Below are positions 25,058 to 53,970 of a DNA stretch of 64,000 bases, one piece after another. Position 1 is the first letter of the stretch; every line of letters begins with the position of its first letter. The position numbers and the translations under genes are program-made. The notes under the pieces were generated by a model. The model saw only the letters and a program-made list of their open reading frames with translations, did not search any database and was not told the origin of the DNA. The stretch is from the NCBI RefSeq assembly GCF_036365525.1, contig NC_090377.1:108334407-108398406 (forward strand), given 5' to 3'. This stretch comes from Heterodontus francisci. Lineage: Eukaryota.

Positions 25058-25065
25058 TATATAAA
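25058..25065 (+). promoter_or_regulatory. TATA box of the SPP2-like gene
   Basis: TATATAAA about 80 nt upstream of the signal-peptide ATG at 25140, in non-repetitive sequence. Confidence 0.7.
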
Positions 25066-25139
25066 CATTGGATGGAACCAGACAACTGACAGAAAGAAGA
25101 AGGGAATAGAAGTGTCCACTACCAATCCATATAGGCAAA

Positions 25140-25191
25140 ATGAAAATCATTCTCTTCATCTTTGCTGCAGTCCAGATCCTCTACTGTTCTG
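25140..25191 (+). CDS. SPP2: SPP2-like secreted cystatin-fold protein, exon 1 (signal peptide)
   Basis: ATG AAA ATC ATT CTC TTC ATC TTT GCT GCA GTC CAG ATC CTC TAC TGT TCT G encodes MKIILFIFAAVQILYCS(G), a classic signal peptide. A phase-1 GC donor (G|gcaagt) joins in frame to the ttcag|GA acceptor at 25314/25315. Confidence 0.8.
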
Positions 25192-25314
25192 GCAAGTATT
25201 GAAGTATAGAATGATTTTGTTGTATGATTTGTTGTTCTGATCATCCTGTACTAACCCAAATGTTCATTTGTCAAAAATGTATTCATCCTTAAACCACTCT
25301 GATTTTTGATTCAG

Positions 25315-25439
25315 GAGCAACATGTGGAAATTCTACCTTTTCACAGATTGAGATAGTATTAAATGCTACAATTACGAAGGTGAATGAAGATGTAGCAACT
25401 AATAACCTATTTGCTGTGACACGCTGTGAAGTAGTAAAT
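25315..25439 (+). CDS. SPP2: SPP2-like gene exon 2 (cystatin-domain N-terminal helix)
   Basis: ttcag|...|gtaagt, 125 nt, open: (G)ATCGNSTFSQIEIVLNATITKVNEDVATNNLFAVTRCEVVN. Resembles mammalian spp24 ALSASVVKVNSQSLSPYLFRA (recalled, not searched). Confidence 0.85.
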
Positions 25440-26311
25440 GTAAGTGGCACTAAATCCAATTGATTTCTTTTTGTCTCTTCCCTCATAATAAATGTCATTA
25501 ACATGAATTTCTTTTGTTGAGTTTGCAAGGATTTTACTGTGAGAAATCTGCCGAGAGGTAGAAAATAATAATTTGGAGCATTTTAGGTCAGTGTTGTTTA
25601 GAGCAATGATCTATCCATATCTACTAATAACTAATGTATGAATGAATTTTCTGTCCAACTAAATTATTTCCTGTTGTCACATGTTTTTCTTATGCTTTTA
25701 TGTGAATTAGTAGCCTTGAAATTCCCTTTATAAACATTATAATAGGATCTCCCAATGTAAACACCTGACCTGCTGTAATGTTGCAGGTTGACTCCAGAAG
25801 GTAGTAATGACAGGCTCTGGTCACTAGATGCTGCTGAAGAGCAATTCTCAATTTGTTGAAGTCCCCTCTCCGCCATCACAACAAAAGCAAAATACTGCAG
25901 ATACTGGAAATCTGAAATAAAAATGAAATACTGCAAAACCTACTGCTCAACAATGGTTCTTACATGGACCATGACAAGTTCCCACCTCCCCCAACCCACC
26001 TTCCTCCACTACTCAAAATTCTTCCTCAGCCATGTGGAGACATCCTTAACCATGTGACTGGGTAGGAAACATAAGTTGGGAACCTCCTGATATCCCACAG
26101 TGCCAACTGCAGAATCTACTTCTGTTTTAGTCTCACCCCAGTGGAACAAATCCATGGCTGTTAATATGACACGACTGCTCAAGACAAAGCCCCCAATCAA
26201 AATATATGATTCGGATTGCAGTGGAAGCAACGCACTGTCAATTCAGTCCCATCACTCCACAGATCACCTAACATATCACTTTAAACTTTCTAACTTAAAG
26301 AAAGCCGCAGC

Positions 26312-26985
26312 TGTATTGACCCCCGAATTAGGCAAACTAAACCAGGTATCTTTAGATCAACAAATTAACTGTTTATTGGAGAAAACTAAATTCTTAAACA
26401 CTACTAAGATATAAACAACATTTAAAAAATAGAAAAATATAGAATCCTTCCAGATTTACATTTCTCAATGATCAATCCTCTGATTCAAAGTCCGATCTTC
26501 CAGGGTACAATGAGGAAAGGCAAACAGTCCAACACCCAAAGTTTCAAACTCCTCTTTCTTCCAGCGATGACCAGAGCAGATCAACAACTCACAACCGCTT
26601 TCAAAAGAATCAATCTGGCTTTAGAATTTTGAGGGATAAACAGTTTAAATTCTTCCTTCTGTTCAAATTAACAGAGATTTCTGTTCAGTTCATACTGGCC
26701 CAGCTGTGTCTGTCTATTAGAACAGTCTGTCTCAATAAAAAGCCAGTTCAAAAGTCAATCACAGCATTGTATCTCGATTCTCATTTTCTGAATGGCTGTA
26801 TCCAAGGCGACCAAGATGCACCTTTTGCTGCTGACTGGTCCTCCCTCTCTGCATGGTTGTATCCATCGGCAACCAAGATGCACCTTCTCGGTAACTCCTG
26901 AGGCTTGCTTGTTCTTAAAGCAGTTCTGATCCTTTGCTGTCTTAAAAACGCACTGCATATTTCCCCCCCAAAAAGTATTGTGACA
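26312..26985 (-). mobile_element. Possible solo LTR
   Basis: TG...CA ends (tgtatt...tgtgaca) and TTTATT near the left end. No convincing TSD. Confidence 0.3.
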
Positions 26986-27439
26986 CTGTCAATAGTGGAT
27001 ACAGATGAAGTTCAGTGAGGTATACTTGAAGTGGCTGGGAATTTGGATCCTCCGTTTCTTGTTCTCCTTTTTAAGCATGTGGGGGTTGACTTTCTTAAAT
27101 AGACTTCCTGTTGTCTACAACAACAACAACTTGGAGTTAAACAGCACCTTTAACATAGCAAAATCTCACAAAGGCACTGCAGGGATGTGCCTGCAGATCA
27201 CGTTACCTGTTGAAATGTCTTCAGTTTACTGTTGAAATCATTGTAATTGTCGAAGTCCAGTGATGTAAAAATGGCAAGGAATTGCTTTGTTCTATCAACT
27301 GGAGTAGCCATCATAGACATCAAAAATGGGAGGGAAATAGACTATAATGGAGGGAAATTAAATCCTGACCATGAAGCATACCTGCAAGAAGGTAAAGCTG
27401 GTAATGCAGTAGAACTGCTTGTCTTTACAAATCAGGGGG

Positions 27440-28085
27440 ACGATTGTAGTTAAGGAAGAGGAGTGTGAAATATTGGATAAGATAAACATAGGGAGAGAGG
27501 AAGTATTAAGGGGATTAGCATCCGTGAAAGTGGATAAATTACCAAGGCCAGATGAAATGTTCCTCAGGCTGTTAAATGAATCCAGGGAGGAAATAGCAGA
27601 TGCTCTGACTATCATTTTCCAATCCTTACTGAATGCAGGTTGGTGCTGGAGGATTGGAGGACTGCTAGCATTGTATCTTTGTTTAAAAAGGGACTGAGGA
27701 ATAGACCAAATAACTACAGGCCAGTCAGTCTAGCCTTGGTAGTGGGCAAATTATTGGAATCAATTCTGAGAGACAGGATAAACTGTCACTTAAAAAGGCA
27801 TGAATTAATCAAGGACAGTCAGCATGGATTCGTTAAGGGAAGATCGTGTCTGACCAAGTTGATTGAATTTTTTGAGGAGCTTAAAAGGAAGATTGATGAG
27901 GGTAGTGCAATTGATGTGGTCTACATGGATTTTAGCAAGGCTTTTGATAAGGTTCCACATGGCAGGCTGGTTACAAAAATAAAAGCCTATGGGATTCGGG
28001 GGACTGTAGCAAGCTGGATGCAAAATTATCACAGTGGCAGGAAACAAAGGGTAATGGTTGATGGATAATTTTGTGACTGGAACAC
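27440..28085 (+). mobile_element. CR1 RT fragment
   Basis: NYRPVSL, QHGFVKGRSCLT and DFSKAFDKVPH. Confidence 0.9.
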
Positions 28086-28839
28086 CTAGTTCCTGTGCCA
28101 TGATTTTTAAGTTGTGCTTTTTATGTCAACATTTAATATTTCAGATGGACATTAGTCTGCGAACATTCCACTTTAAACTGCAGCTGCCTGTCAGGATTTA
28201 ATTGCAAGCTCAGTCCACTATATGGCAATATATTGAAACCTGTCAGTTTCTCAACTCTTGTCTCCCAATTCCCAATCGAAATTAATTTTTGCATGTTTTA
28301 TGTGTTTCTCTCCATCTTTTGGGTACTTCAAATCCAATTTATGGGGAATTTCACCCATTGAATAGTGTGTCTGGAAAGCCCTTTCTCATTTGCTGTTATG
28401 GCTATCCATTTATGGTTTAGTGCTGACTAAATCTGAGATTTCCCTGATTACATAATGGATTGCCTCAAGCTGCTCACCTCAGGGGTCACACACCCCACAT
28501 CTAACCAATCACCCCTAACCCTATGGTGACCCCAACTCCTGCTACTGCTGACTTCACCATGCCCTGATGCCTCAACCCATCTTTTTGATGACTAAGTTTC
28601 TACTGAAGCTAAAGCCCACAGTTTAGAAATTTCAGTTAGACTATTAAACTGCCAAAAACAACACAAGCATTTCTGTGGTGGCCAATTATTTGTTGCTTCA
28701 TATTGTTTGATCTGTGCCCAATTGGAACTGGTCACCACTGTCTAAACTCATCTGATTTTGGACACTGACCGATGTTGAAGAGCAGAAAAGTGTTCCACAG
28801 ACAATCAAAAGCTTGACCCAAAGAACTTTTCATGCTCTG

Positions 28840-29160
28840 ATGACATCTCAAAGTCCTTTACAATTAATAAGTTATTCTTGAAGTGTAGTCACTGATATTT
28901 TAGGCAAAAGAAGCAGCTAGCAAATGAAATCTCACCAGTTCGTCTGTTTATGTAGTGATGGTTGAGGGATGTATGATGGATAAGACTTCAGGAGAACTGC
29001 CTTCCTTGCTTTGTAAAAGTGCCACGGGATCTTTTGCATCCACCTGAGCGAGGAGACAGAGCTTTAGCATAACATCTCATGCAAAAGATGGCAGCTCTGA
29101 CATTGGAACACTTCCTCAGTGCATCACTGAATAATTAGCCTGATTATGTGCTGGAGTGGA
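28840..29160 (-). mobile_element. Deu-domain SINE (SacSINE1/AmnSINE-like), diverged
   Basis: gtgccacgggatcttttgcatccacctgag...aacatctcatgcaaaagatggca...cttcctcagtgca is the reverse complement of the Deu domain as recalled. Confidence 0.7.
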
Positions 29161-29399
29161 ACACCTTGTGTGCAGCCTGATCTGGCCGGCATCCTTCCAT
29201 AAAATCTCCTTCTTCATCCTTACATCTTAGGTAGAGATATTCCTATTGGGAAATGGCATTCCCAATCATCGGGAGGCAATACTTTTTTTAAAGAATATTT
29301 GGCAGAAAGATCTGAGGAAACCTAAGTGCCATTGAAACAAAAATAAAATTGGTAACAGCCTAAAAATGACCTGAAAACAGTTTTCCTCGGCTTTCTGTG

Positions 29400-30045
29400 C
29401 CCATTCGATGAAGTCCCTCATAAGAGACTGTTAGCTAAAGATGAAACCTATAGATTTGAGGGCAAATTACTGGCCTGGTTAAGAAATTGTCTGAGTGGCA
29501 GGAGACAGAAAGTAGGGATAATGGTGGGTACTCTAATCAGCAGCATGTATTGAGTGGTGTCAGCATTGAGCCCCCAACTAATCACCGTACTTAATAACAA
29601 CTTAGATGATGGCATAGAAAGCCAGCTATCCAAACTTGACAATGACACAAAGATAGGCAGCATTATAAACAGTGGAGATGGAAGTAAAAATTATAAAGAT
29701 ATATAGATAGTTGCAATGAATGGACAAAATTGTGGCAAATGGATTTCAATGTAGTGTGAGGTCAACTCTTTTTGACCAATACCAGACAGATCAGAATACT
29801 TTCTAAATGGTGAAATGTTAGAAACAGTGGAGGTTCAAAGAGACTGAGGGGTCCAGGCCCATAAAACATTACAATGTCATGGAGAGGCTAAGGGAATGCT
29901 GGCCTTTATATCTGGAGGGGTAGAAGTCATGCCTCAGCTATACAAAGCACTGGTTAGATTGCACCTGCAGTACTGTGAGTAGTTCTGTTCACCACACCTG
30001 AGGAGGGATAAATTGGCATTGGAGGGAGTGCAAGATAGATGCTCC
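29400..30045 (+). mobile_element. Old CR1 RT fragment
   Basis: Degenerate DKVPH, KFADDTK and YCVQFWSP-like segments. Confidence 0.75.
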
Positions 30046-30359
30046 TGATTGGAGCTTCCATCTCCATTGACTGTAAGAGACAAAATGCCAAATTCATGGA
30101 CAGAGTTTCAGTACCATTCCTACCTTACTGTGTTAATGGCCTTTCCCATATCAGTCTAAACTAAGTTCCTTTAAAACTCTTGATGACAATAACTTGCATT
30201 GATTATAACACCTTTAACATAGAAAATTGACTGAAGGAACTTCACAGATGCATGAGGAAAATGGATGATGAACTGAAAAGGAGGTATTGCAAGTGGTCAA
30301 CAAAAACCCTACTAACCAGTGGGGTTTTAAAGAAGACAGGGAAATGGAGAGGCAGTGCA

Positions 30360-30690
30360 ATTCAGGGAGGGAATTCCAGAGAGTGGGATCTGAGTAACTG
30401 AAGGAACTGCTGCCAGTGATTGGTAAAGATGAGAGGCAATTCCAGTTTACAGCTGACAAATAGCTATCAGGATTCTGGACAATTTTTGAGCTTGATACCA
30501 GGATGGGATGTTATTGCTACATACTGAAACATCCGGTGACATAAAAGTGACCAATAAGTTCCATTTCTCTGAGTTCATTTATTTAATTTGAAAATTCACC
30601 ATTGCTTTATTCCATTTTGGTTCATCATAACTAATTTACAAGGTTACTAAAATAAATTAGAACTTAGATTGTATTGATTATTGATTACAA
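30360..30690 (+). repeat. Intronic copy of the gene's upstream region 24520-24880
   Basis: Collinear similarity including a 47-nt exact match (24748-24794 = 30555-30601). Confidence 0.9.
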
Positions 30691-30699
30691 TAATACAAG

Positions 30700-31570
30700 T
30701 AAGAACCAGACTGAATATAGAAGGTTCAGAGGGGAAAAACAAATAAAAGAAACAAAGACAGCGTATGTTTAGAGACCAGCAGCTAACGTTAAAGGGAATA
30801 CAAAAGTCTTCTATAGACATATATATAGTAAATGTGTGGTAAAAGGCAGGATGGAGCTGATAAGGGACATAGAAGAGGATTTGCTCATGGAGGCAAAGGG
30901 CATGGCTGAGGTACTAAATCAAAACTTTGCATCTGTCTTGACCAAGGAAGAAGATGCTGCCCGACTGAGGAGGTAGTTGAGATACTGGATGGGCTCAAAA
31001 TTGATATAGAGGTGACATAAGGGCTGGCTGTACTTAAAGTTGATAAGACACCAGGACCAGATGAGATGCATCCAAGGAAAGTGAGGGAAGTAAGGATGGA
31101 AATTGTGCAGGCATTGGCCATAATCTTCCAATCCTCCTTAGATACAGGGGTGGTGCCAGAGGACTGGAAAATTGCAAATGTTACACCCTTGTTCCAGTAA
31201 GACTGTAAGGATGAGCCCAGCAACTGCAGGCCAGTGAATTTAATTTCAGTGGATTAATTAACAAAAGTCAGCATGGATTTGTTAAAGGTAAATCATGTTT
31301 AACTAATTTGATTGAGTTTTTTGATGAGGTGACAGGTTTGATAGGGATAAGGCTGTTGATGTGGTACACATGAACTTGTAGATGGCATTTGATAAAGTGC
31401 CACAGAACAGGCTTGTCAGCAAAGTTAGAGCCCATGGAATAAAAGGGACAGTAGCAACATGGATACAAAATTGGCTGAGTGGCAGAAATCAGAGAGTAGC
31501 GGTGATTGGTTGTTTTTTGGACTGTAGGAAGTTATGTAGTGGGGTTCCCCAGGGGTCAGTGTTCGGACAA
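30700..31570 (+). mobile_element. CR1 fragment
   Basis: KTPGPDEMHP, AFDKVPQ and GVPQGSV. Confidence 0.85.
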
Positions 31571-31572
31571 TA

Positions 31573-31726
31573 ACATAAAAGCAAAATACTGCAGATGCTG
31601 GAAATGTGAAATAAAAACAAAAAGTGCTGGAAAATACTCAGCAGATCTGGCAGCATCTGTGGAGAGAGAAGCAAAGTTAACATTTCGGGTCAGTGACCTT
31701 TCATCAGAATTGGCAAAGGTTAGAAA
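31573..31726 (-). mobile_element. Penelope-like terminal fragment carrying a minimal hammerhead-ribozyme motif
   Basis: Same family as 25880-25945 and 35312-35650. The minus strand reads CTGATGA-aaggtcactgaccc-GAAA-tgtta. Confidence 0.65.
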
Positions 31727-32975
31727 TAGAGTCATAGAGTTATACAGCACAGAAACAGGCCTATTGGCTCATCGTGTCTGTGCTGGCCATCAAGGACTTA
31801 TCTATTCTAATCCCATTTTCCAGCACTTGGCCCATAGCCTTGTATGCTATGGCATTTAAAGTGGTCATCTAAATACTTCTTAAATCTTGTGAAGGTTCCT
31901 GCCTCTACCACTCCTTCAGGCAGTGTGTTCCAGATTCCAACCACCCTCTGGGTGAAATATTTATCCTCAAGTCCCCTCTAAACCTCCTGCCCTTACCTTA
32001 AATCGATGCCCCTGGTTATTGAGCCCTCCGCTAAAGGAAAAAGTTTCTTCCTATCTATCCTATCAATGTCCCTCATAATTTTGTATACCTCAATCACGTC
32101 CCCCCTCAGCCTTCTCTGCTCCAAGGAAAACAACCATAGCCTATCCAGTGTCTCTTCATAACTGAAATGCTCCAGCCCAAGCAACATCCTGGTGAATCTC
32201 CTCTGCATCCTCTCCACTGCAATCACATCCTTCCTATGGTGTGGCGACCAGAACTGTACACAGTACTCCAGCTGTGGCCTAATTAGCATTTTATACAGCT
32301 CCATCATAACCTCCCGGCTCTTATACTCTATGCCTCGGCCAATAAAGGAAAGTATCCCGAATGCCTTCCTAACCACCTTATCTACCTGTGCTGCTGCCTT
32401 CAGTGATCTATGGACAAGCACCCCAAGGTCCCTCTGACCCTCTGTACTCCCTAGGGGTCTACCATCCATTGTATATTCCATTGCCTTGTTAGTCCTCCCA
32501 AAGTGCATCACCTCACACTTCGCAGGATTACACTCCATTTGCCACTGCTCCACCCATCTCACCAGCCCATTTATATCATTCTGTAATCTAAGGCTTTCCT
32601 CCTCACTGTGCACGACAATACCAATTTTCATGTCGTCTGCGAACCTACTGATCATACCTCCTATATTCACGTCTAAATCATTAATGTACACTACAAACAG
32701 TAAGGGTCCCAGCACCGATCCTTGCGGTACACGACTGTTCACAGGCTTCCAATCGCAAAAACAACTCTCGACCATCACCCTCTGCCTCCTGCCCTAAGCC
32801 AATTTTGAATCCAATTTGCCAAATTACCCTGGATCCCATGTACTTTTACTTTCTTAACCAATTTCCCATGTGGGACCTTATCAAAAACCTTACTGAAGTC
32901 CATATAGACCACATCGACTGCACTACCCTCATCCACACCTCGAGTCACCTCCTCGAAAAATTCAATCAAATTTGT
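31727..32975 (-). mobile_element. CR1 LINE, 5'-truncated
   Basis: 261-aa ORF with VPQGSVLGP and RFADD; atagagtcatagag tail. Confidence 0.92.
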
Positions 32976-33344
32976 TCGACACGGGGGTGGGGAGGGGGGC
33001 GAAGTGGGAATGGGCACGAATGTCTGGAAATGCCATTGGGGGAGGGTGGGTGGAGGTGGGGGGGTTGGGAAAATGTATTTAATGGTCATTTAATTCAATT
33101 TTGTTGAAATTTAACTTACCTGGCCCTTTAATTTTTAATGTCCATTGAGACTTGTAAGCCTATTAAAAATGGTGCCAGTACCTGCACATTGGCGCCGGAC
33201 GCTATTGCTGGTGACAGCTCACCCGCCCCCCTCCACATCATCGCGGGGGCCGGGTGCCACGGCCATGCAAATGAACCACCGCGTTTGAAATCGCAGTGGC
33301 TCCATGAGGCGGTGCCCGTGCAGGTGGGCATAATTTCTTCAGCC

Positions 33345-33690
33345 TGAGGGGTCTGGACAGAGTAGAGAAAAATTGTTTCTGTTGGTGGAAGAATCACGAA
33401 CCAGAGGACACCGATTTAAGGTGATTGGCAAAAGAACCAAAGGCGACATGAGGAAAACATTTTTACACAGCAAATGGTTAGGGTCTGGAATGCACGACCT
33501 GAGAGTGTAGTTGAGGCAGATTCAATCATGGCTTTCAAAAGGGAATGGATAAGTGCCTGAAGGGATATAATTTATAAGGCTATGAGGGCATCGACAGGGA
33601 GGTGGGACAAGCTAAATTGTTCCTGCAGAAAGCCAGAATGACTTCAATGGGCTGAATGGCCTCCTTCTATGCTGTGACCATTTTGATTCT
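33345..33690 (+). mobile_element. CR1 3' fragment, preceded by a GC-rich MITE-like fragment at 32980-33345
   Basis: Typical CR1 3' end ...gggctgaatggcctccttc... Confidence 0.75.
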
Positions 33691-34283
33691 ACATTACTGT
33701 GGATCTGGAGTCACATGCAGGCTAGACTGGGTAAGGACAGCAAATTGTCTTCATAAAAGGACACAAATGACCCAGATGGACTTTTACAACAATCCAGTAT
33801 TTTCATGGTCACCATGACTGATACTCGCTTTTTCCTTCCACATTCATTTAACTAAATAACTTAATTTCCCCATACTCTATGGTGAAATTTGTACCCATAT
33901 CACTTGATTGTTAGTTCAGGCCCCTAGATTACTAGTCCAGTAACATGACCACTATATTACTGCATTCCTTCAGGTCCAGCACCAGCAAAGATCAACTCGT
34001 GTTACTGTTCATGTGAATATCTTAATAAATCACCAATGAATCAGTCTGCTCAGTGTAGAACTTACACAAACCAAATAATCACCACAATAACTTTGTACAT
34101 ACTTCTACTAACTGATCACAATACAACAATTTAAATTTGGATAGCACCTTTAACAAAGTAAAATCTCCCAAAGTGTTTCACAGGAGTGTAATAATGTACA
34201 GGAAACTAAGAAGATTTCTGTCTGGCACTATATCATTATTTATAAGTATTATCTCAAACACCCTTCATTTTTCCGTTGGTTAG

Positions 34284-34406
34284 GTTACTAATTTAGGAGA
34301 ACGTCAGTTCCGGGTGAATTTAATTATTGATGTCCAGGAAACTATGTGTCGCAAAGATTCTGGAATCGATCCGGCAAATTGTACACTGCTAACTAGCCCA
34401 GATGCT
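34284..34406 (+). CDS. SPP2: SPP2-like gene exon 3 (cystatin domain, first disulfide)
   Basis: ttggttag|...|gtgagt, 123 nt, phase 0-0: [41 protein letters not shown]. ETxCRKDSGxDPAxC matches spp24 ETTCRKDSGEDPATC. Confidence 0.9.
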
Positions 34407-34461
34407 GTGAGTATTACAATGATTACTGTTTGCTTCTCTGTTATAATGAATCCTTTCTGAA

Positions 34462-35655: not shown

Positions 35656-35709
35656 CCAACTAGCTTTGTATCGTGAGCAAAGTCACAGTCACAGTCTCTT
35701 CATCTAAGT

Positions 35710-42849: not shown

Positions 42850-45480
42850 GACTGATTATCTTAGAAGGTTCCTCAAATGAGGCCTTTTGGGAAGAACTTA
42901 AAAACAAAAAGGGGGCAATCACTTGGTTGGGAACCTACTACAGGCCTCCAAACAGTCTGGGAGAGATAGAGGAGCAGATATGTAGGCAAATCTCAGAGAG
43001 GTGTAAAAATAATAGGGTAATAATAGTAGGCAATTTCAACTTCCCTAATATCAACTGGGATAGTCTTAGTGCAAAAGGCTTAAATGGGGGCAGAATTCTT
43101 AAAATGCATACAGGAGAGCTTTTTGAGCCAGTACGTAGAAAGCCTTACTAGAGAAGGGGCGGTACTGGACCTAATCCTAGGGAATGAAGCCGGACAAGTG
43201 ATAGAAGTGTCAGTGGGTGAGCATTTCGGGGATAGTGACCATAACTCTGTAAGATTTAAGGCAGTTAAGGAAAAAGATGGACCAGAAATAAAGGTACTGA
43301 ATTGGGGGAAGGATGATTTCAATATGATAAAACAGGATCTGGCCAAAGTGGACGGGGAGCAGCTACTTGTAGGAAAGTCGACATCAGATCAGTGGGAGTC
43401 ATTCAAAGAGGAAATAGTGAGGGTTCAGAGCCAACATGTACCCTTTACAGTGAAGGGTAGGACCAACAGGGAACCCTGGATCTCAAGAGATATTGAGGAT
43501 TGGACCAGGAAAAATAAGGAGGCTTATGGCAGATTCAGAGCACTGAAAACAGTGGAGGAACTAGAAGAGTGTAGAAAATGTTGGGGGGGGTACTAAAAAA
43601 AGTAATTAGGAGAGCGAAGAGGGGACATGAAAAAACACTGGCAGGGAAGATAAAGGAAAATCCCAAGGCATTTAATAAGTTTATTAAGGGCAAGAGGATC
43701 ACCAGGGAAAGAGTAGGGCCCATTAGGTACCAAAGTGGCAATCTGTATGTGGAGCCGGAGGACATAGGTGAGGTTTTAAATGAATACCTTTCATCTGTCT
43801 TCACTATGGAGAAGGATGATGTCGTTGTTGAGATCAGGGACGGGGATTCTGATATACTTGAACATATTAGCATTGAAGGGGAGGAAGTATGAGCTGTTTT
43901 AGCGGGCTTAAAAGTGGATAAATCCTCAGGCCCAGATGAGATGTATCCAAGGCTGTTAAGTGAGGCAAGGGAGGAGATAGCAGGGGCTCTAGCACAAATT
44001 TTCAAATCCTCTCTGGCCACAGGAGAGGCACCAGAGGATTGGAGGACAGTGAATCTGGTACCATTATTCAAGAATGGTAGCAGGGATAAACCATGTAATT
44101 ACAGGCCAGTGAGTCTAACATCAGTGGTAGGGAAACTATTGGAAAGAATTCTGAGGGACAGGATTAATCTCCACTTGGAGAGGCAGGGATTAATCAGGGA
44201 TAGTCAGCACGGCTTTGTCAGGGGAAGATCGTGTCTAAGTAACTTGACTGAATTTTTCGAGGTGGTGGCTAGGTGTGTAGATAAGGGTCAAGCAGTTGAT
44301 GTAGTCTGCATGAACGTCAGTAAGGTTTTTGATAAGCCCCACGCGGGAGATTGGTTAAGAAGGTAAGAGCCCATGGGATCAAGGGCAATTTGGCAAATTG
44401 GATCCAAAATTGGCTTAGTGGCAGGAGGCAGAGGGTAATGGTCGAGGGTTGTTTTTGCAAGTGGAAGCCTGTGACCAGTGGTGTACCACAGGGATCGGTA
44501 CTGGGACCCTTGCTGTTTGTAGTGTATATTAATGATTTGAACCTGAATATAGGAGGTATGATTAGTAAGTTTGCAGATGACACGAAAATTGGTGGTGCTG
44601 TAAATAGTAAGTAGGAAAGCCTTAGATTACAGGACGATATAGATGGGCTGGTAAGATGGGCGGAGCAGTGGTAAATGGAATTTAATCCTGAGCAGTGTGA
44701 GGTGATGCATTTTGGGAGGACTAACAAGGTAAGGGAATATACAATGGATGGTAGAACACTAGCTAGTACAGAGGGTCAGAGGGACCTTGGTGTACTTGTC
44801 CATGGATCACTGAAGGCAGCAGCACAGGTAGATAAAATGGTTAGGAAGGCATATGGGATGCTTGTCTTTATTAGCCAAGGCATAGAATATAAAAACAGGG
44901 AGTTTATGATGGAGCTGTAGAAAACGCTAGTTAGGCTACAGCTGGAGTACTGTGTACAGTTCTGAGCACCACACTATAGGAAGGATGTGATTGTCCTGGA
45001 GAGGATGCAGAGGAGATTCACCAGGATGTTGCCAGGGCTAGAGCATTTCAGCTATGAAGAGAGACCGATATGGCTAGGGTTGTTTTCCTTGGAGCAGAGA
45101 AGGCTGAGGGGAAACCTGATTGAGGTATACAAAATTATGAGGGGCATTGATCAGTTAGATTTGAAGAAACTTCTTCCCTTAGCAGGGAAACCTGGGGGCA
45201 TAGATTTAAGGTAAGGGGCAGGAGGTTTAGAGGGGTTTTGAGGAAAAACTTTTTCACTCAGAGGGTGGTTGCAAGTGGAATGCACTGTCTGAGGTAGAGG
45301 CAGGAACCCTCACAACATTAAGAAGTATTTAGATGAGCACTTGAAATGCCGTAGCATACAAGGCTACTGGCCAAGTTCTGGAAAATGGGATTAGAATAGT
45401 TAGGTTTTTGATGGTTGGTACAGACACGATGGGCCGAAGGGCCTGTTTCTGAGCTGTATAAATCTATGACCATATGACTC
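42850..45480 (+). mobile_element. Near-complete CR1 ORF2 (decayed)
   Basis: [30 protein letters not shown] and KFADDTK; ctatgac tail. Confidence 0.93.
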
Positions 45481-46215
45481 TATGGCTGTATGGTGTGAGA
45501 GTAAGGGGAGAGGTACACAGTTTATGGTGTGACAGTAAGGGGAGGGGTACAAAGTCTATGGTGTGACAGCAAGGGGAAGGGTACACATCATCAGAACCTA
45601 AGATCATAAGAAATAGGAGCAGAAGTAGGCCATACGGCCCATTGAGCCTGCTCTGCCATTTAATATGATCATAGCTGATCTTTGGCTTCAACTGCACATT
45701 CGCGTCCACTCCCCATATCCCTATCCCAGCCTTAAATATATTCAACGATGTTACATCCGCTACCCTCTCAAGCAGAGAATTCCAAAGATTCACATCCCTT
45801 TGAGTGAAGAAATTTCTCCTCATCTCAGTCCGAAATGATTCCCCCCTTATCCTGTGACTGTGCCCCCATATTTTAGATTTCCTAGCTGGTGGAAACAAAT
45901 CTTAGTGTCTCTCCTGTTCAGTGCCTTTAGAATCTTGTAAATTTCAATGAGATCACCTGTTATTCTTCTAAACTCCAGCGAATTTAGGCCTAATTAACTC
46001 AGCCTCTCATCATCTCATCAAAACACTGTACAATTGTAGCAAGACATCTTTATTCGTGTACTCCAACCCCCTTTCAATAAAGAGGTATACAGTCTATGGT
46101 GAGACAGTAAGGGGAGGAGTACATAGTCCATGCTATGATAGTAAGAGAAGTGGGCTCACTGTCTATGGTTTGGCAGTAAGGGTAAAGGGTTCAATCTCTT
46201 TGGTGTGAGAAACAG
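45481..46215 (+). repeat. 34-bp minisatellite split by a CR1 fragment (-, about 45595-46080)
   Basis: Unit tatggtgtgacagtaaggggaggggtacacagtc, about 3 copies at 45489-45587 and about 4 degenerate copies at 46083-46215. Confidence 0.8.
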
Positions 46216-46753
46216 GGGCTATGATGCTGCAAAGGCACTTTTCAGAAAATGTTAAAACTCTTCTTTTGCGACAGAGCTTCAGGATTTTCTGATTTGCATT
46301 CCCAAACCTGCTCTCTCAGTGGCCTCACTTTTCTGATCCAGTCAGATCGGTTCAGTGATCAGTTCCATTGAGGAAGCCAGCTCTTTCATTTTTGATGCTT
46401 CCCCTTCCACTGATTTAGTAATGCTGGATATCAGAAGGCAACAGCATTCCTGACGCCCAGTGCTGTTAAAATGTTAATGTTGGGAAATATGGCATGAGAT
46501 AAAGTCCCGACTCTCATCTACAATTTGTCTTTGGGCAGTCCAGCTGTCCCTTCCATTGATATGCAATGTAACAGTTACCTGATGATAAAACAATATCCTG
46601 TGTTAATAAACCCCCTTGATGTTTACAGTGTCCTGGCACTCATGCAAGTGACCGTTAGTTCAATATTCCACTTTTGATGGTGATTCACTATTATAAAATC
46701 CGTTCTATTTTGGAGCAGTTACTGAATTACAATACCACCCTCTATATCTGTAG

Positions 46754-47887
46754 GAAATTGCTACTTGCATGAGTTGGGTCATGCTTGACGGGGACATGGT
46801 CACGAGTGTTGAAATAGAATGCAGGAACATAACCTTGGGAACGACAGCACCAACATCATCGACTCCAGCACCAACATCATTGACCCCCGCACCAACATCA
46901 TCGACCCCGGCACCAACATCATCGACTCCAGCACCAACATCATCGACTCCAGCACCAACATCATCGACCCCCGCACCAACATCATCGACCCCGGCACCAA
47001 CATCATCGACTCCAGCACCAACATCATCGACTCCAGCACCAACATCATTGACCCCCGCACCAACATCATCGACCCCGGCACCAACATCATCGACTCCAGC
47101 ACCAACATCATCGACTCCAGCACCAACATCATCGACCCCCGCACCAACATCATCGACCCCGGCACCAACATCATCGACCCCGGCACCAACATCATCGACT
47201 CCAGCACCAACATCATCGACTCCAGCACCAACATCATCGACTCCAGCACTGACATCATCGACTCTAACATCATCGATAACTCCAACACAAAGATCATCGA
47301 CTCCAACATCAACATCAGCATCGTCGACTCCAGCACCGACATCATCGATAACTCCAACACTAACATTATCAACAACTGCAACACCAACATCAACACAAAC
47401 ACAAACATCAACACCAACACCAACATCAACACAAACATCAACACCAACACCAACACAAACATCAACTGCAACACCAACATCAACACAAACATCAACACCA
47501 ACACCAACATCAACTGCAACACCAACATCAACACAAACATCAACACCAACACCAACATCAACACAAACATCAACACCAACACCAACATCAACTGCAACAC
47601 CAACATCAACACAAACATCAACACCAACACCAACATCAACACAAACATCAACACCAACACCAACACCAACATCAACTGCAACACCAACATCAACTGCAAC
47701 ACCAACATCAACACAAACATCAACACCAACACCAACATCAACTGCAACACCAACATCAACACAAATGTCAACACCAACACCAACAACAAGAACAACAAAA
47801 AAGAAATTACCACCGTTGTCATCGTCATCAGAAAGCAGTGAATCATCATCAGAAAGCAACGAATCATCAGGACGATGCAGTTGGAAG
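46754..47887 (+). CDS. SPP2: SPP2-like gene exon 4: second cystatin disulfide loop, mucin-like PTS repeats and S-x-E serine cluster
   Basis: ctgtag|GAA...AAG|gtaaat, 1134 nt open in phase 0: [31 protein letters not shown]-(APTSSTP)19-...-([14 protein letters not shown])[31 protein letters not shown]. The C-x17-C loop has the spp24 spacing. Confidence 0.85.
46847..47245 (+). repeat. Coding minisatellite, 19 x 21 nt (APTSSTP) with 84-nt and 168-nt higher-order structure
   Basis: GCACCAACATCATCGAC(T/C)CC(A/C/G) units. Variants cycle every 4 units, and the TTG variant recurs at units 2 and 10. Confidence 0.95.
47375..47785 (+). repeat. Coding Thr-rich tandem repeat (mixed 24/18-nt units: [16 protein letters not shown])
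   Basis: ACACCAACATCAACACAAACATCA and ACACCAACATCAACTGCA units, all in frame. Confidence 0.9.
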
Positions 47888-48089
47888 GTAAATCATAGAT
47901 TTTAAAAAAAATTATAGCTAAATGAAGTTATGACCTTCAAAGTTCTGAAAACCCGTTTTAGTTTTAACAGTTTAAGTACGGCTGATTTTCAGTGCAAAAA
48001 ATCGTGGAAATTGCTATGTCTTATTTTATGCTGCCTCTAAATTGCACTGATTCTGTCCAACCTCTGCTGAAACTGTCTGCCACTCACTA

Positions 48090-48872
48090 ACATAAGAACA
48101 TAAAGAATACAAGCAGGAAATAAGGCATAATACCCCTCGCTCCTACTCTGCCATTCAGTAAGATCATGGCTGATCTTCTACTCAATTTCACTTTCGCACC
48201 CAATCTTCACAACCCTTGATTTCCTTAATACTCAAAAATCCATCAAACTCAGCCTTGAATATACTCATCAATTGAGCATCCACAGCTGTCTAGGGTAGAG
48301 AATTCTCAACTCTCTGAGTGAAGAAAATTCTCCTCTTCCCAGTCCTAATTATCCCTTATCCTGAAACTATGACCCCTGGTTCTTGAATCTCCAGCCAGGG
48401 GAGATACCCTGTTAAGCCCTCGAAGAATTGTATATGTCTTGCTGACATCACATCTCATTCTTCTAAACTCCAGAGTATAGTAGGTCTACTCCACTGAAAC
48501 TCTCTTTAGAAGACAGCTCTTTCATCGAGTGAACCTTCATTACACACTCTAAAGGCAAGTATATCCTTTCCTTGGTAAGGAGACCAAAACTGTACACAGT
48601 ACTCCAGGTGTGGTCTCACCAATGCCCTGCACAATTGGCCTAAGACTTCCTTACTCTTATACACCAACCCTCCTGCAATGAAGGCAACCTACCTAATTGC
48701 CTTCCTAATTGCTTGCTGAACCTGCATGTTAACTCTCTGTGATTCATGTACAATGATGCCCTGAATCCTCTGAATCCCAACATTTACTAGTCTCTTCCCT
48801 TTCAAAAAATATCCTGCTTTTCCATTCTTCCGACCATAATGGATAATTTCACACTTCCTACAATATAGTTCT
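48090..48872 (-). mobile_element. CR1 3' fragment
   Basis: KCEIIHYGRKN...VHESQRVNMQVQQAIRKA; cataagaacataaag tail. Confidence 0.85.
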
Positions 48873-49769
48873 GCCGCCAGAGAAAACTGAAGCTCATACA
48901 AATTTCTTGAATTCGCACCTGTTCTGAATGGGCTATACATTTAAGCCTAACATTGAAGCATACCAGGATCCAAACTTATATTTAGTTTTTTTCATGATGT
49001 CTTTCTTAAATTTATTTTAATTTTTTGCCCATTGATATCTACAATGCATTTTCTGTCTCCATAAATGCATCTTCATTGTACTCGAATGATTTGCATTAAG
49101 AATTCCATGAATCATTAAAACACTTCATGAGTACATTTTCTGAAACATGTTATGCCAAATGTGCATAAAAGGTTGTTTGGGAGCTTCAAACTTTAATTTT
49201 CATTGTTAAAGAAGGACTTTGGCATGAGTTTAGCACTTGCCTGGTGCTCCAATTGTTTACTTTGATAATCCACTTATTTCACGCTTATTTTACATTCTGG
49301 CGATTGCTCATAATAATCTCAGAGAATCCAAACTTAAATCGTCAACAGGAAGTTCTGCATAAATTTCAGCTTAACTTGTTGGTTATTCCATTTCAGAAAT
49401 TCCTAAACAAGTCCTTTGGAAAGCAGGAAACAGAGGGTGGAGCTATTTGAGTCCACTGATCACTGGTAGGGCAGAACATGCCATAAGTGGCTTGCCAGAA
49501 AATTATTGGTGAGACGCCTGCAAAATTCCTGTGTTAATGCCAACGGATAGGCAGTGCACCCATAATTTTGCAATTAGCTGCTCACTGCATATGAGGACCT
49601 GGCAGCGTCGAGAGGGTTTGGAAACCTCAGCCCCTTTTCTCAGAGAGAAAAAGGGTGGATTCTTATATAAAGCTGGCACAGTGACTCCATAATCAGATCA
49701 CTGATGACAGCACTTGGTATCTTTTCAAACCCAGTGACTGTGACTGCTTAAACCCACAATGCACACTAT

Positions 49770-50110
49770 TTCTTTCAGCAAATACAGCAAGCATCTTGCT
49801 CATAGTGAGGTCTCATAAATAGCATGTGATATCAGTGAGCAATTAATCTGTCTTTGGTGGTGCTGGTTGAGGGAGCAGGTGTTAGCCAGGAGAGCTCCCT
49901 ACTCTTCTTTGGGTAACATTGTGGGATCTTGTATGTTCACCTACATGAGCAGATGGTCTCTGTTTGACATCTCATCTAAAGATTTGCACCACTGACCATA
50001 CAGCAATCCCCCAGTGCTGCCCTGAAACTAGATTATGTACTCCAATCCTGCAGTGGAGATTGATCCCATGATCATTTGTCTCCAAGGAAGGTGCTGTATT
50101 ACTGAGCTGA
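49770..50110 (-). mobile_element. Deu-domain SINE, diverged
   Basis: ggttgaggga...gggatcttgtatgttcaccta...gacatctcatctaaaga, the same family as 28840-29160. Confidence 0.65.
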
Positions 50111-50319
50111 GCTGGCACACTAACACCTGAGGCAGATTTAAACCTGTCTTTGGAAGATATGTCACTGAAGCCTAAAACTGGACAATTGCAAGTTTGACTG
50201 CAAGTTAGACCTGATTGGTTAGTAGAGGCGGGTTCTTCAGATATTCTGTTCTAGAAATCTCTGTATAAAAAACCTTGTTTTCTCTGGACTGAAGATATAA
50301 ATGATACATTTTAATTTAG

Positions 50320-50604
50320 AGATACGGCAGAAGGGGATGGTATAGGCATTGCAGGAAGAAGCATGGTTCAAGAAGAGGAGGAAGATGGTGGAGGCGTCGT
50401 TGGGGCCGAAGATGGAACAACAGACGACGATGGAATTACAACAGGTACAACATGTACAAGAGAGGAATATATGGCTTTCGTTCTGGAGGGGGATCTACAC
50501 TTACAAATCACCAAGACAGAACATACATGCGAGTTAGGAGCAGGAGTAGGCCACTCGGCCCTTCGAGCCTGCTCTGCCATTCAATTAGTTCAGGGCTAAA
50601 CTGA
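50320..50604 (+). CDS. SPP2-like gene exon 5: Arg/Trp/Gly-rich cationic C-terminal peptide (3' boundary uncertain: stop at 50602-50604 or donor after 50444)
   Basis: Acceptor ttaatttag|AGA in phase 0 matches the exon 4 donor. Open frame RYGRRGWYRHCRKKHGSRRGGRWWRRRWGRRWNNRRRWNYNRYNMYKRGIYGFRSGGGSTLTNHQDRTYMRVRSRSRPLGPSSLLCHSISSGLN*. Absent from the ORF track because it has no 5' start codon. Confidence 0.7.
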   Translation, partial: RYGRRGWYRHCRKKHGSRRGGRWWRRRWGRRWNNRRRWNYNRYNMYKRGIYGFRSGGGSTLTNHQDRTYMRVRSRSRPLGPSSLLCHSISSGLN

Positions 50605-50660
50605 TTACTCCACATTTCCACCTGCCCCCGATAACCTTTCACCCCCTTGCTTATCAGAAG
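50530..50660 (-). mobile_element. CR1 3'-tail fragment overlapping the read-through end of exon 5
   Basis: aggagcaggagtaggccactcggcccttcgagcctgctctgccattcaat...ccccgataacctttcaccccc, near-identical to 20040-20165. Confidence 0.85.
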
Positions 50661-51179
50661 GAACTGGAGAGAGTAAAATACAGATTTAGTAAATACCACC
50701 AGAGATTATTTGTCACATTTTATTTTTGTCTCATTTCTGTGGTCACTGTATACATAACATTAAAACTGGTCTGCAATGATATTTATCCCCACACGAGCAA
50801 TATCCCAATCCCAGGTGCTTGCCCAGTTCCCATATCCCTTTATCCCCCTTTCATTCAACCTCCTATTTAACCTACTAACTTATCTTTAAGCTTTGACATG
50901 GTCTATTGTGTGGTTTTGTTGGCAGTAACATTTTGGGTTTGGTTTTTCTATTATTTTGATCTTGTATATCTCTCTACGGTCACCTCTCATATGCTGCCTT
51001 TCAAAGCTGAAAAACACAAAGTCTTTCTTTATAACTCAGTTCTCTGACACCACAGATCAGACTCACTTTCTGAACTGCCTCCAGGATTTTAATGTTTCTC
51101 TTTTGCCTCTCACCAGAAATGGTCACAGTACTCAAAGTGTGGTCTATCGAGAGCACAATAAGCATGAATTCGTCTACCT

Positions 51180-51920
51180 GTTTTTTTCATTCGTTCATGG
51201 GATGTGGGCAGCACTGGCAAGGCGAGCAGTTATTGCCCATCCCTAATTCCGCTTGTGAAGTTAGTGGTATGTCACCTTCTTGAACCGCTGGAGTCCACGT
51301 GGTGTAGGTACATGCACAGTGCTGTTAGGGAGGGAGTTCTAGATATTGACTCAGTCACAGTGAAGGAATGGTGATATATATCCATGTCAGTATGGTCTCT
51401 AACTCGGAGGCAACTTGCAGGTGGTGGTGTTCCCACAGACCAACTGCCCTTATTTGTCCAGGTCTTTAAGGTCATGTGTTTGGAAGATGCTGTAGAAGGA
51501 GGCTCGGTGAGTTGCTGCAGTGCATCTTGTAGATGGTACACACTGCTGCCACTGTGTGCTGATGGCGGAGAACATGAATGTTTAATGTGGTGGATGGGGT
51601 GACAATCAAGTGGGCTGCTTTGACCTGACTGGTGTAGCGCTTCTTCAGTATTGTTGGAGCTGCATTCATCCAGGCAAGTAGAGAGTATTCCTTCACACTC
51701 CTGACTTATACCTTGAAAGTGGTGGAAAGGCTTTGGGGAGTCAGGAACTGGGTTACTGGCTGCATAATTCCCAGCCTCAAATCTGCTCTTGTAACCACAG
51801 TATTTATGTGCTGGTCCAGTTAAGTTTGCGGTCAATGGTGACCCATAGGTTGGAGGTGGTGGGGAATTCTGCCATGGTAATATTGTTGAATATCAAGTGG
51901 AAATGTTTAGATTCTCTCGA
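51180..51920 (-). mobile_element. Non-LTR LINE 3' fragment (same family as 35710-36330)
   Basis: VTIDRKLNW and MKEYSLLAWMNAAPTILKK, with the reverse-complement tail. Confidence 0.78.
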
Positions 51921-51929
51921 TGGCACAAA

Positions 51930-52695
51930 ACCAAGTAAAGAAACAAAAGATGTGTCTGGGTGAAGTGCAAATGACAGGACAACAACTGCCAAATGCAAAG
52001 TAAAGGGATTAAGATAGAAATGGTGGGAGGAAAACAAAAAAAACCCCAAAAAAACAAACATCCTTTAGATGCTCGGTGCAATCTGGTGACAAATTGTGCA
52101 AGTTTCCCCATCTGTCTGCTTCATTTGTTGGAAAACATGCCACTGAAATGTTGCATTCATCTTCACCACACAATTGTTTAATGCATCCATGGCCTTGTCA
52201 TAATCATCCCATTCTCCTGTGTCATTAAGTGTTTTAAATGTCTCCCTCACTGATGCCCGAGCATTGTAGAGCAACAAAGCTTTCTGTTGTGCTCTCTGCG
52301 CCAACCTCGCCCCATCGTGAAACAGGCCCCTGTTGTCCGCATAATCGTCAAACTCCTCCATCCATGTGCCCCATCGCACACTTACTACACTGGCATCACC
52401 ATTGGGATCAAACTGATTTACACCTCTATTCCCAGCAGATTCTAGTCCACCAAAAGCCATACCTAACTGCAACCTAATTCAATATTTTAGTCCGCGTTGC
52501 CATTGTTGGATCCTCCAATAATGATACTTTATAAAACTGAGGCGTAACTTGATTCACAGACATTATTCAGCGATCTTTGCTCTCCAGATACTGTCCTTTA
52601 ACATGTGCTATCTGACCTTTAACATCTGGGCCTGATGACCTCCTAACTAGTACAGAAAGCACTGCACAGTATCTAATATTCAAGTCGACATAACA
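51930..52695 (-). mobile_element. Gypsy LTR-element remnant (LTR about 52504-52695, PBS, gag fragment)
   Basis: Gag-like FDPNGD...RWGTWMEEF...QKALLLY...DDYDKAMDALN...FQQMKQTDGET; PBS-like TGGCAACGCGGAC on the - strand at about 52490-52502. Confidence 0.7.
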
Positions 52696-52904
52696 CTGAG
52701 TTATCATCATGACAGACACTTCCAGAATTAAACAATTAACTCAATGGTGTCACCATAAATACCCCAAGGTAAGTACACATCTTTTCCAACAACAGCCACT
52801 TTCTACACATGTATGCAAGACAAAGACACTTTGATTTTACCGAGAAGAGATTTTTCAGCTCACTCACTAACTGAATATTGATCACCAAAAACTTCTTAGA
52901 AATT

Positions 52905-53345
52905 TTCTTTGGCCTCCTTCGCTCGAGAGACAATGGGTAAGCGCCTGGAGGTGGTCAGTGGTGTGTGGAGCAGTGCCTGGAGTGGCTATAAAGGCCAATT
53001 GTAGAGTGACAGGCTATTCCACAGGTGCTGCAAAAAAATTTGTTTGTCGGGGCTGTTACACAGTTGGCTCTCCCCTTGCGCTTCTGCCTTTTTTCCTGCC
53101 AACTGCTAAGTCTCTTCGACTCGCCACACTTTAGCCCCGCCTTTATGGCTGCCCGCCAGCGCTGGCGAATGCTGGCAACTGACTCCTACGACTTGTGATC
53201 AATGTCACAGGACTTCATATCGCGTTTGCAGACGTCTTTGAAGCGGAGACATGGACGGCCGGTGGGTCTGATACCAGTGGCGAGCTCACTGTACAATGTG
53301 TCTTTGGGGATCCTGCCATCTTCCATGCGGCTCACATGGCCATGG
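52905..53345 (-). mobile_element. RTE-clade LINE 3' fragment
   Basis: Minus-strand translation GHVSRMEDGRIPKDTLYSELATGIRPTGRPCLRFKDVCKRDMK. Confidence 0.85.
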
Positions 53346-53411
53346 TTATCTAGTATTCAGATAAAACTACTGCAGATTCTCAATGAATTAATTTTGCTGA
53401 TTTAATTACAG

Positions 53412-53970
53412 AGTTTAAGAAAACTGAAGAGTGGATGGAGATAACAAGCAAACGTGAAAAACAGGGAGAAAATTCCAGATGGCTTAAAGAGTTTAATTTT
53501 AAAACATTATGTTTCACACTTAGTTAGAAGTAGGTTACAGTTTAATTGTTAGTATGTTAGAATATAGTTTATTACACTGGTGTTCTTGATATCATTACTA
53601 CTCAGAAATATGCCAATTAACTAAATCATGTGATATATTCCATACCAGATGTCAATGTGAAATCAGACAATAAACAGAATATTAATAATTGTATCACTGT
53701 GGCTCTTTCACTTTTGTAAAACAATATGAGAGGAACTCATATTATTGTATCTATTGCCTTATACGGTAAAACTGTTCACAATCTGACTTCTTAACTGCTT
53801 TGTCCTGTTCTAATTAAACTCTAATTACCACAACCATTTTGGTTAGGCTGGCTCTGAATGTCTTACAAGGCCATTAATCAAATACACTACAAGTAAAAGA
53901 TCAGAGGCGCAGAAAGTCAAATCGGCAGAAAAACAGCATGAAAACAATAAACTCTTCATTAACTCCTGAT
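53412..53970 (+). other. Candidate terminal / 3'UTR exon of the SPP2-like gene
   Basis: Acceptor ttttgctgatttaattacag| at 53411, followed by AT-rich unique sequence with AATAAA at 53669 and 53946. Reads A-GTT-TAA in phase 2 (fits the AACAG|gtacaa donor at 50444) or SLRKLKSGWR* in phase 0. Confidence 0.4.

Follow-up and report, generated by a model that had tools for sequence, protein, structure and literature searches.

A gene of the SPP2 type, real and transcribed, lies in the window, the 64,000-nt stretch of Heterodontus francisci contig NC_090377.1 analyzed here. Its features are given below.

25060..25065, + strand: TATA-like box (TATAAA), 80 nt upstream of the ATG; putative function
25140..25191, + strand: coding part of exon 1 (52 coding nt), predicted signal peptide, phase-1 GC donor
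25315..25439, + strand: exon 2 (125 nt), encoding the helix of the cystatin-fold domain and its first strand, with Cys21 and Cys55
34284..34406, + strand: exon 3 (123 nt), core of the Spp-24 domain; Cys81, Cys92
46754..47887, + strand: exon 4 (1134 nt), end of the cystatin domain (Cys105, Cys123), stalk, Ser/Glu block and first Cys of the tail
46838..47794, + strand: Thr/Ser/Pro stalk, 319 aa of tandem repeats, probably O-glycosylated
47819..47869, + strand: Ser/Glu block with 4 S-x-E sites and 4 Glu, putative FAM20C phosphorylation
50320..50444, + strand: exon 5 (125 nt), Arg/Trp-rich tail, Cys489; both joints present in an RNA contig
50520..50656, no strand assigned: SINE-like repeat fragment in intron 5, non-coding in the RNA-supported form
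53412..53970, + strand: exon 6, last two codons, stop (53416-53418) and 3' untranslated region

Gene model and transcript

All of the introns end in AG; introns 2-4 begin with GT and intron 1 with GC, a donor common to five of the seven copies examined, the other two having GT at the same site. RNA contig X1 (record 1; 652 nt, depth 178) shows no differing letters against the window copy over 47790-47885, 50318-50440 and 53408-53787 and, with the shared letters placed, gives GT-AG joints at 47887|50320 and 50444|53412. The RNA comparison covered 47790-54100, and the joints between exons 1-2, 2-3 and 3-4 are taken from the genomic sequence; exon 4 was defined by its open frame and splice sites, with its last 98 nt present in the RNA contig. 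X1, X2 and X3 derive from the same sample, of a run type not on record as RNA, and their contigs show presence only; no piece of X2 or X3 is listed on the exons.

An earlier, sequence-only reading had proposed five exons with phases 1,0,0,0, a protein of about 520-570 aa, a splice at 47887/50320 and a gene end near 53970. The coordinates and phases check out and the exon 4-5 joint is seen in X1, but the exon count does not stand: because the contig joins 50444|53412, the five-exon, 572-aa model ending in exon 5, whose read-through enters the intronic repeat, has been dropped for a six-exon protein of 521 aa. The approximate end of the gene agrees as well, the contig extending to 53787 and poly(A) signals lying at 53669, 53813 and 53946. 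The exon 5 read-through matched Pfam Rota_NS35_C at 15.5 bits against a cut-off of 27, which is ascribed to chance, and long frames on the opposite strand and in the other frames of the stalk repeat are by-products of its being stop-poor. The repeat fragment in intron 5 has very high multi-copy depth and is missing from copies B3 and C9. Protein searches returned no record identical to the window copy, which is weak evidence on its annotation status.

By eye, the 5' leader and exon 1 closely resemble the catshark spp2.L1 probe, and in the alignment the hydrophobic N-terminus predicted as a signal peptide is common to the relatives. Exon 2 can be aligned with relatives and alone has no Pfam match, while exon 3 is 74% identical to P0001; their sizes of 125 and 123 nt are confirmed and would match exons 2 and 3 of human SPP2, as the sequence-only reading suggested.

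Family membership and sister copies

The protein belongs to the SPP2 family and is not a cathelicidin, given its match to Pfam Spp-24, the nearby vps8 gene and its position in the tree with catshark Spp2L3; the earlier proposal of an SPP2 paralog with a cystatin fold is thus borne out by profile, locus and phylogeny alike. Exon 3 scores 29.8 bits against Spp-24 (PF07448; cut-off 26, E 7e-7), so that the N-terminal domain is recognized as Spp-24, and Cys81, 92, 105 and 123 are in place; a domain model of the relative P0006 (pLDDT 80) also matches cystatins (E 4e-5). The tree, which includes no cathelicidin and in which no catshark spp2.1 row is identifiable, places the window protein in a 16-row clade (support 99/97) with P0008 (XP_038664201.1), which is Spp2L3. 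Its one-to-one catshark ortholog is an open fork in that tree. The gene vps8, the one marker sought among five (vps8, nme9, cops8, sh3bp4 and arl4c), lies about 1.1 Mb away at C7:109.51-109.53 Mb, in agreement with the published SPP2 locus, and nine other spp2 exons are found at 109.84-110.17 Mb.

Spp-24 was the top Pfam match for 12 of 13 non-cathelicidin relatives, the thirteenth matching neither family, and P0002 passes both cut-offs. Aligned to 21 SPP2 rows, the window domain reaches 19.7-58.1 bits, compared with 18.9 for the one cathelicidin record, and it does not qualify as a cathelin-type prodomain. Its best sequence matches among solved structures are cathelin chains (E 0.022-0.063). 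A PF00666 profile search of the genome gave no matches, as did its control, so this search is uninformative on the absence of cathelicidins. Inhibitory type-2 cystatins carry QxVxG and PW motifs; neither is found in the window protein.

Cathelicidins share with this protein a signal, here a predicted one, a cystatin-fold domain and a cationic C-terminal segment; the window gene differs from them in its Spp-24-scoring domain, its SPP2 synteny, the intervening stalk and putative phospho block, and its six exons. Bony-vertebrate SPP2 (spp24) shares the Spp-24 cystatin domain, a Ser-rich S-x-E block and a basic end, but is a single gene with a liver-made, circulating product that has no stalk and a far less basic tail. 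HRG and kininogen, which combine cystatin domains with low-complexity cationic regions, resemble the window protein in joining a non-inhibitory cystatin domain to a repeat region, and HRG is antimicrobial; both are plasma proteins with several cystatin domains, rich in His in place of Arg and Trp.

Several sister copies are present in the genome; C7:108.05-108.46 Mb may represent a true duplication or an uncollapsed haplotype. Copy A1 is 99.75-99.97% identical to the window copy; over the parts covered by the X1 RNA, differences number 0 for the window copy, 1 for A1 and 13 for A3, with more for B3. Stretches of 72-100% identity to the exon 6 region adjoin sister copies. Two neighboring copies appear broken, and for C9 the upstream exons were not found within 24 kb.

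Stalk, Ser/Glu block and basic tail

The stalk (residues 129-447) contains 197 Ser and Thr (62%) and 69 Pro (22%) and is built from tandem arrays, with units of 21 nt and of 18/30/48 nt, at 46845-47797. It is thus a mucin-like (PTS) region, slightly longer, at 319 aa, than the roughly 310 aa of repeats first described. Among sister copies exon 4 measures 294-1140 nt, and the long stalk is a recent repeat expansion. In each of the three A copies the reading frame stays open across about 950 nt of repeats.

After the stalk comes the Ser-rich region typical of SPP2, with S-x-E at residues 458, 461, 465 and 468 and four Glu, much as had been noted earlier; it hardly varies in alignment A2. The role of such sites in SPP2 is taken from the accessible text of PMC13188829. 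The Arg/Trp-rich tail that follows was also correctly recognized: its 43 aa include 17 Arg and 6 Trp, with a net charge of +19 and a GRAVY of -2.57, and it represents the Arg-rich C terminus of SPP2. Against the tails of six of seven relatives, only 0-7 of 500 shuffles reach its alignment score; for the seventh, P0059, 297 of 500 do. Compared with P0073, from a carpet shark, the tail is 66% identical and the cystatin domain 48%. Five of six complete clade relatives have a Cys pair in the tail, spaced 7-13. Charge is constant among relatives (+16 to +23 per 45 aa) while the Trp count runs from 0 to 6, Trp being absent or single in P0005, P0007 and P0004. Tails of bony-vertebrate SPP2 (20 rows, assigned from the tree) are much less basic, at -4 to +12. 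The models of clade members P0001, P0008 and P0010 have neither block nor tail, P0008 being the most expressed catshark copy.

Helical amphipathicity in the tail does not exceed that of shuffles in any of six windows (68-290 of 500 reach it). A single-sequence model of P0073 is confident for residues 201-230 alone (pLDDT 79-83), where it predicts three strands and places the two Cys symmetrically on either side of the first turn; a three-stranded sheet is accordingly what this model of a relative predicts for the tail. The best Z in a fold search with it was 4.0, with none of 5 or more, which is uninformative, and the ESM Atlas gave no usable match for either tail. As to a cathelicidin-type mature peptide, the window tail is cationic, without the helical signal and with a sheet predicted for the relative only; some fish cathelicidin classes carry a disulfide.

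Published relatives and possible roles

The sequence-only reading knew of no description of this architecture, but it is already in print: section 7 of PMC13188829 describes catshark spp2.L2 (XM_038790278.1) with its parts in this sequence, namely a signal peptide, cystatin-like domain, PTST-type repeat, Ser-rich region and Arg-rich end, at a locus likewise near vps8. The Pro/Thr/Ser repeat of the window protein lies between domain and Ser-rich region as in spp2.L2, and the gene thus joins the recently described skin- and tooth-associated copies of SPP2. Six public protein models, belonging to five species of sharks and rays, carry the same layout, among them Hemiscyllium ocellatum LOC132817549 (P0073; in Table S14 of PMC13188829), which has all of the parts and the same C-x13-C spacing as Cys475 and Cys489 of the window protein, though its stalk is 67 aa against 332 in the window protein by the same measure. 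For spp2.L2, compared by its published description, the accessible text mentions neither a tail Cys pair nor Trp content; relative to that text, the new elements are the tail's conservation above that of the cystatin domain, the Cys pair and the predicted sheet.

The same source reports catshark spp2.L1/L2/L3 expression (TPM) of 39/78/342 in denticles and 19/63/77 in dental lamina, against 0.05/1.8/0.2 in gills, 0.02/2.2/0.16 in blood and 0.5/2.3/0.2 in spleen, with levels near background in oesophagus and stomach too. No in situ signal was detected with spp2.Like probes, and the function, called hard to apprehend, is left open there. A shark tooth RNA-seq preprint places spp24, paralog not stated in the part available, with mmp20 in a late-tooth cluster.

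What is established is the gene, two spliced joints, membership in SPP2, the order of the parts and the fact that the tail is conserved in both sharks and rays. We favor, at a probability of about 0.5, a secreted spp2.Like phosphoglycoprotein of tooth and denticle epithelium, in or on the mineralizing matrix. The signal peptide would export the protein; the cystatin-fold domain, without papain-inhibitor motifs, may bind partners such as BMP-type factors; and the stalk, if O-glycosylated, would serve as a hydrated spacer whose length is flexible. FAM20C would phosphorylate the Ser/Glu block (about -12), which could bind calcium phosphate, while the tail (+21 from residue 473) would fold as a small disulfide-closed sheet and bind polyanions: the phospho block, apatite phosphate and glycosaminoglycans. 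Acting jointly, the acid and basic blocks might let the protein assemble on mineral surfaces, where it would tune or restrict the growth of crystals. This reading is supported by the Spp-24 match, the locus, the clade with Spp2L3, the catshark expression, the late-tooth cluster, the near-invariant Ser/Glu block and a tail of low GRAVY without a helical signal; the missing in situ signal counts against it. Since charge is constant and Trp variable, polyanion binding fits better than membrane insertion. Such a matrix protein would bear on the construction of shark tooth and denticle surfaces. As a counterpoint, the predicted Cys-closed, Trp-rich sheet resembles hairpin defense peptides in plan.

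The conserved, strongly basic tail could be a natural antibiotic peptide, and a host-defense precursor built from SPP2 independently of cathelicidins is perhaps half as probable as the matrix role. Here the phospho-Ser/Glu block would mask the cationic tail until a protease cut at the basic sites before or after the block, releasing an Arg/Trp peptide, about 45-50 aa long and closed by a disulfide, that would kill microbes on skin and mouth surfaces. A cystatin-fold prodomain before a cationic, Trp-rich segment would follow the cathelicidin plan, and HRG and latexin, other branches of the cystatin superfamily, may offer parallels, having acquired antimicrobial activity; the tail's conservation beyond that of the domain, its recurrent Cys pair, the confident strands of P0073 and a basicity far above that of bony-vertebrate SPP2 also speak for it, but the variable Trp, the lack of helical amphipathicity, the clade members without block and tail and a cleavage step that is hypothetical speak against. 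The Arg-rich end is moreover an old feature of SPP2, also present in lampreys and sarcopterygians (PMC13188829, accessible text), so that amplification of an ancestral region is more likely than gain of a new peptide. The mucus or mucosal defense first suggested is weakened by catshark expression high in denticles and dental lamina and near background in gills, gut, blood and spleen; since skin and mouth likewise act as barriers, that pattern is compatible with defense. No antimicrobial idea for SPP2/spp24 appears in the accessible text of PMC13188829 or among the literature matches listed, and searches for shark SPP2 as an antimicrobial peptide and for a fish cathelicidin with an anionic region and cleavage found no match. 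That the spp2.Like clade encodes an unrecognized family of elasmobranch host-defense peptides, in which a disulfide-closed, three-stranded Arg/Trp mini-domain kept since the shark/ray split would be silenced by a phosphoserine block and borne on a glycan stalk, is about as probable as the precursor reading. If so, a mineral-regulating gene would have given rise to a second and independent system of the cathelicidin kind, by another route from the cystatin fold to such a design, and the very short list of shark defense peptides would lengthen.

Less probable still is a dual-use coat in which the uncut protein would be held on erupted tooth or denticle apatite by its phospho block, the glycan stalk lubricating and the tethered tail deterring fouling, by analogy with the statherin/histatin/MUC7 set of mammalian saliva. 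All three parts occur in one chain and recur in five other species, the stalk can vary freely in length and catshark expression is confined to mineral-bearing surfaces, but dental lamina expression suggests forming rather than erupted teeth, and the block adjoins the tail, which would place the two together against the mineral. Least probable is that this copy duplicated recently and is redundant, its long stalk having arisen by neutral slippage and the short-stalk ancestral form alone mattering; near-identity with A1, the range of exon 4 lengths and the broken neighbors would suit it, against which stand the frame kept in all three A copies and the spliced RNA that fits the window copy best. 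The analysis supplies an RNA-supported spp2.Like gene model and a synthesizable tail of 45-50 residues, conserved in sharks and rays, that may fold.

Gene structure, transcription and family placement

The spp2-like gene (25140-53970, forward strand) is real and transcribed. All five exons proposed in the sequence-only reading are present in the window with the sizes and phases it gave, and the proposed joint between exons 4 and 5 is crossed by a 652-nt RNA contig with 0 letters differing from the window, which runs from the end of exon 4 through exon 5 and on into an additional, sixth exon beginning at 53412, giving a six-exon gene model. The contig was found in one of three runs, all from one sample, the RNA label of that run being a guess; because it crosses two GT-AG introns and depth is 0 in five unique intron bins (49056-50110), it is read as spliced RNA. 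Over the parts it covers, the sister copies A1 and A3 differ from the window by 1 and 13 letters and B3 by more, so the RNA matches the window copy best. The intron 1 donor is GC, as in five of the seven copies compared, with GT donors aligned there in the other two. The predicted protein has 521 aa.

The gene belongs to the published spp2.Like group, as an L2-type member; four chondrichthyan spp2 clades are defined in PMC13188829. Exon 3 scores above the Pfam cut-off for Spp-24. In a tree built from 55 domain rows, with redundant or short rows (17, including the sole cathelicidin) left out, the window protein is placed, to clade level, together with catshark Spp2L3 among 16 rows (99/97). By eye, its leader and exon 1 also agree with the catshark spp2.L1 probe. 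Cystatins and cathelin domains are both matched by a structure model of the domain of a relative, P0006 (pLDDT 80, from a 12-row alignment); papain-inhibitor motifs were looked for in the window protein and are absent. On contig C7 the window occupies 108.33-108.40 Mb, and the same contig carries vps8 (109.51-109.53 Mb) and nine more spp2 exon matches (109.84-110.17 Mb), an arrangement as in the elasmobranch spp2 locus published in PMC13188829. The exons of P0001, P0009 and P0059, Heterodontus francisci proteins at NCBI, are encoded in the same genome, which identifies the animal as a horn shark.

An extra cysteine pair, Cys21/Cys55 in exon 2 (window 25323-25428), lies outside the four SPP2 cysteines and is common to most clade members; it is possibly a clade-specific disulfide. 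The probe labelled spp2.L2 in Table S18 (row 18) of PMC13188829 resembles, by eye, P0008, which Table S14 names Spp2L3, a possible label mismatch.

Shared layout and the cationic tail

The sequence-only reading knew of no description of this architecture. It is already known, the layout being in print in PMC13188829, where catshark spp2.L2 has a PTST repeat placed between its cystatin domain and Ser-rich region and an Arg-rich end. This goes partway to refuting the sequence-only reading on that point, since the published description concerns one paralog clade rather than the usual form of SPP2 in sharks. The sole under-described feature is the conserved, putatively Cys-closed cationic tail, which is open to direct testing. 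The words "mucin", "antimicrobial" and "cathelicidin" do not occur in the main text of that paper. Relatives were gathered by a full HMMER search, for which stingray P0002 served as query (56 matches), and an alignment search (two more). All four parts, from the domain and stalk to the Ser/Glu block and cationic tail, occur together in 6 of the 15 other clade models, from five species (Hemitrygon, with two, Mobula, Leucoraja, Pristis and Hemiscyllium); the other nine lack one or more parts, several being apparently truncated gene models. By one and the same measure, the stalk has 332 aa in the window protein and 67-149 aa in the complete relatives. Exon 4 spans 294-1140 nt among six A- and B-type copies of the same genome (1134, 1140, 597, 333, 294 and 294 nt), which argues that the stalk grew long recently, through expansion of repeats upon a short ancestral linker.

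The tail comprises 43 aa from exon 5 on, with 17 Arg, 6 Trp and a net charge of +19. It is 66% identical to that of Hemiscyllium, an alignment score reached by none of 500 shuffles, against 48% for the domains, and is 36-56% identical to ray tails. One Cys stands on either side of the exon 4-5 joint; the pair is found in five of the six complete relatives, at spacings of 7 to 13. The motif C-[RKT]-[RKT]-[RK]-x(1-2)-G is present in the window protein and eight of the relatives compared, the strict pattern not being matched by P0002 and P0074. In one weak single-sequence AlphaFold model of a relative (P0073, Hemiscyllium; mean pLDDT 47.6), confidence is limited to residues 201-230, which form three strands; the turns fall at conserved Gly, and the two Cys are placed symmetrically on either side of the first of them. 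A fold search with this model gave no match at Z 5 or more (best 4.0).

Possible roles

PMC13188829 calls spp2.Like function hard to apprehend, and reports that spp2.Like expression is confined to scales and dental lamina. In catshark, the genes of the clade are active in tissues that bear teeth or denticles, with levels close to background in gills, gut, blood and spleen (PMC13188829; the top other L2 value is 9.2 TPM, in spiral intestine), and for this reason we favour, with a probability of about one half, a mineral-associated matrix or surface protein. Judging from the sequence and the SPP2 literature, the protein would be secreted, its Ser/Glu block phosphorylated and its stalk O-glycosylated; the acid phospho block would bind calcium phosphate and the basic tail polyanions. 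Shark tooth RNA-seq groups spp24, without specifying the paralog, with mmp20 in a late-tooth cluster (bioRxiv 10.1101/2025.08.26.672487).

Because skin and mouth act as barriers, and because the tail is composed like Arg/Trp defence peptides, two other readings are kept: that the tail is a processed host-defence peptide, which we think unlikely, and that the protein is an uncut antifouling coat, which seems distinctly improbable. Two observations speak against membrane killing: the tail charge holds at +16 to +23 across relatives while Trp varies from 0 to 6, and the tail shows no helical amphipathicity above that of shuffled sequences. Other cystatin-superfamily branches (HRG, latexin) have gained antimicrobial activity (PMC2784779), and the list of shark defence peptides is very short (PMC6795676). 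Cathelicidins have a cystatin-fold prodomain followed by a cationic C-terminal segment (PMC11762488), the mature peptide being freed by proteolysis and carrying a disulfide in some fish classes (PMC3978493); the window protein resembles them in overall plan but differs in domain, synteny and gene structure, and on those counts is not a cathelicidin.

Variant ends, gene copies and surrounding sequence

The models P0001 (stretch L045), P0008 and P0010 have neither the Ser/Glu block nor the basic tail. Behind a short stalk, all three close with much the same hydrophobic run of Trp/Ile/Met/Phe, conceivably a membrane or GPI anchor. Among the catshark spp2.L genes, L3 reaches the highest level in denticles (342 TPM; PMC13188829).

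A three-gene spp2.Like unit is present three times at C7:108.05-108.73 Mb (L001-L006, L019-L036), as two direct copies 260 kb apart (99.75-99.97% identical) and one inverted copy (97-99%), reflecting either recent duplication or an uncollapsed haplotype. Two B-type copies (L025, L026, L033, L034) match exon 2 and not exon 1, carry exon 4 on the opposite strand, gave no exon-5 match when one was sought, and look disrupted by inversion. In A3, a 2-nt deletion closely downstream of the exon-5 donor (L040:5201-5024) is harmless provided that A3 is spliced in the same way as the window copy. Contig C9 (274271-314731; L013, L047) holds exon-5-like and exon-6-like stretches whose Arg/Trp tail has diverged; a search within 24 kb brought up no upstream exons.

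Many fragments within and around the window gene resemble LINE reverse transcriptases:

2379-4942, LINE reverse-transcriptase-like
21262-21735, LINE reverse-transcriptase-like
27580-28068, LINE reverse-transcriptase-like
31993-32793, LINE reverse-transcriptase-like
43084-44775, LINE reverse-transcriptase-like
55943-56497, LINE reverse-transcriptase-like
59467-59964, LINE reverse-transcriptase-like

Two overlapping frames at 6051-6940 look like a broken Harbinger-type transposase.
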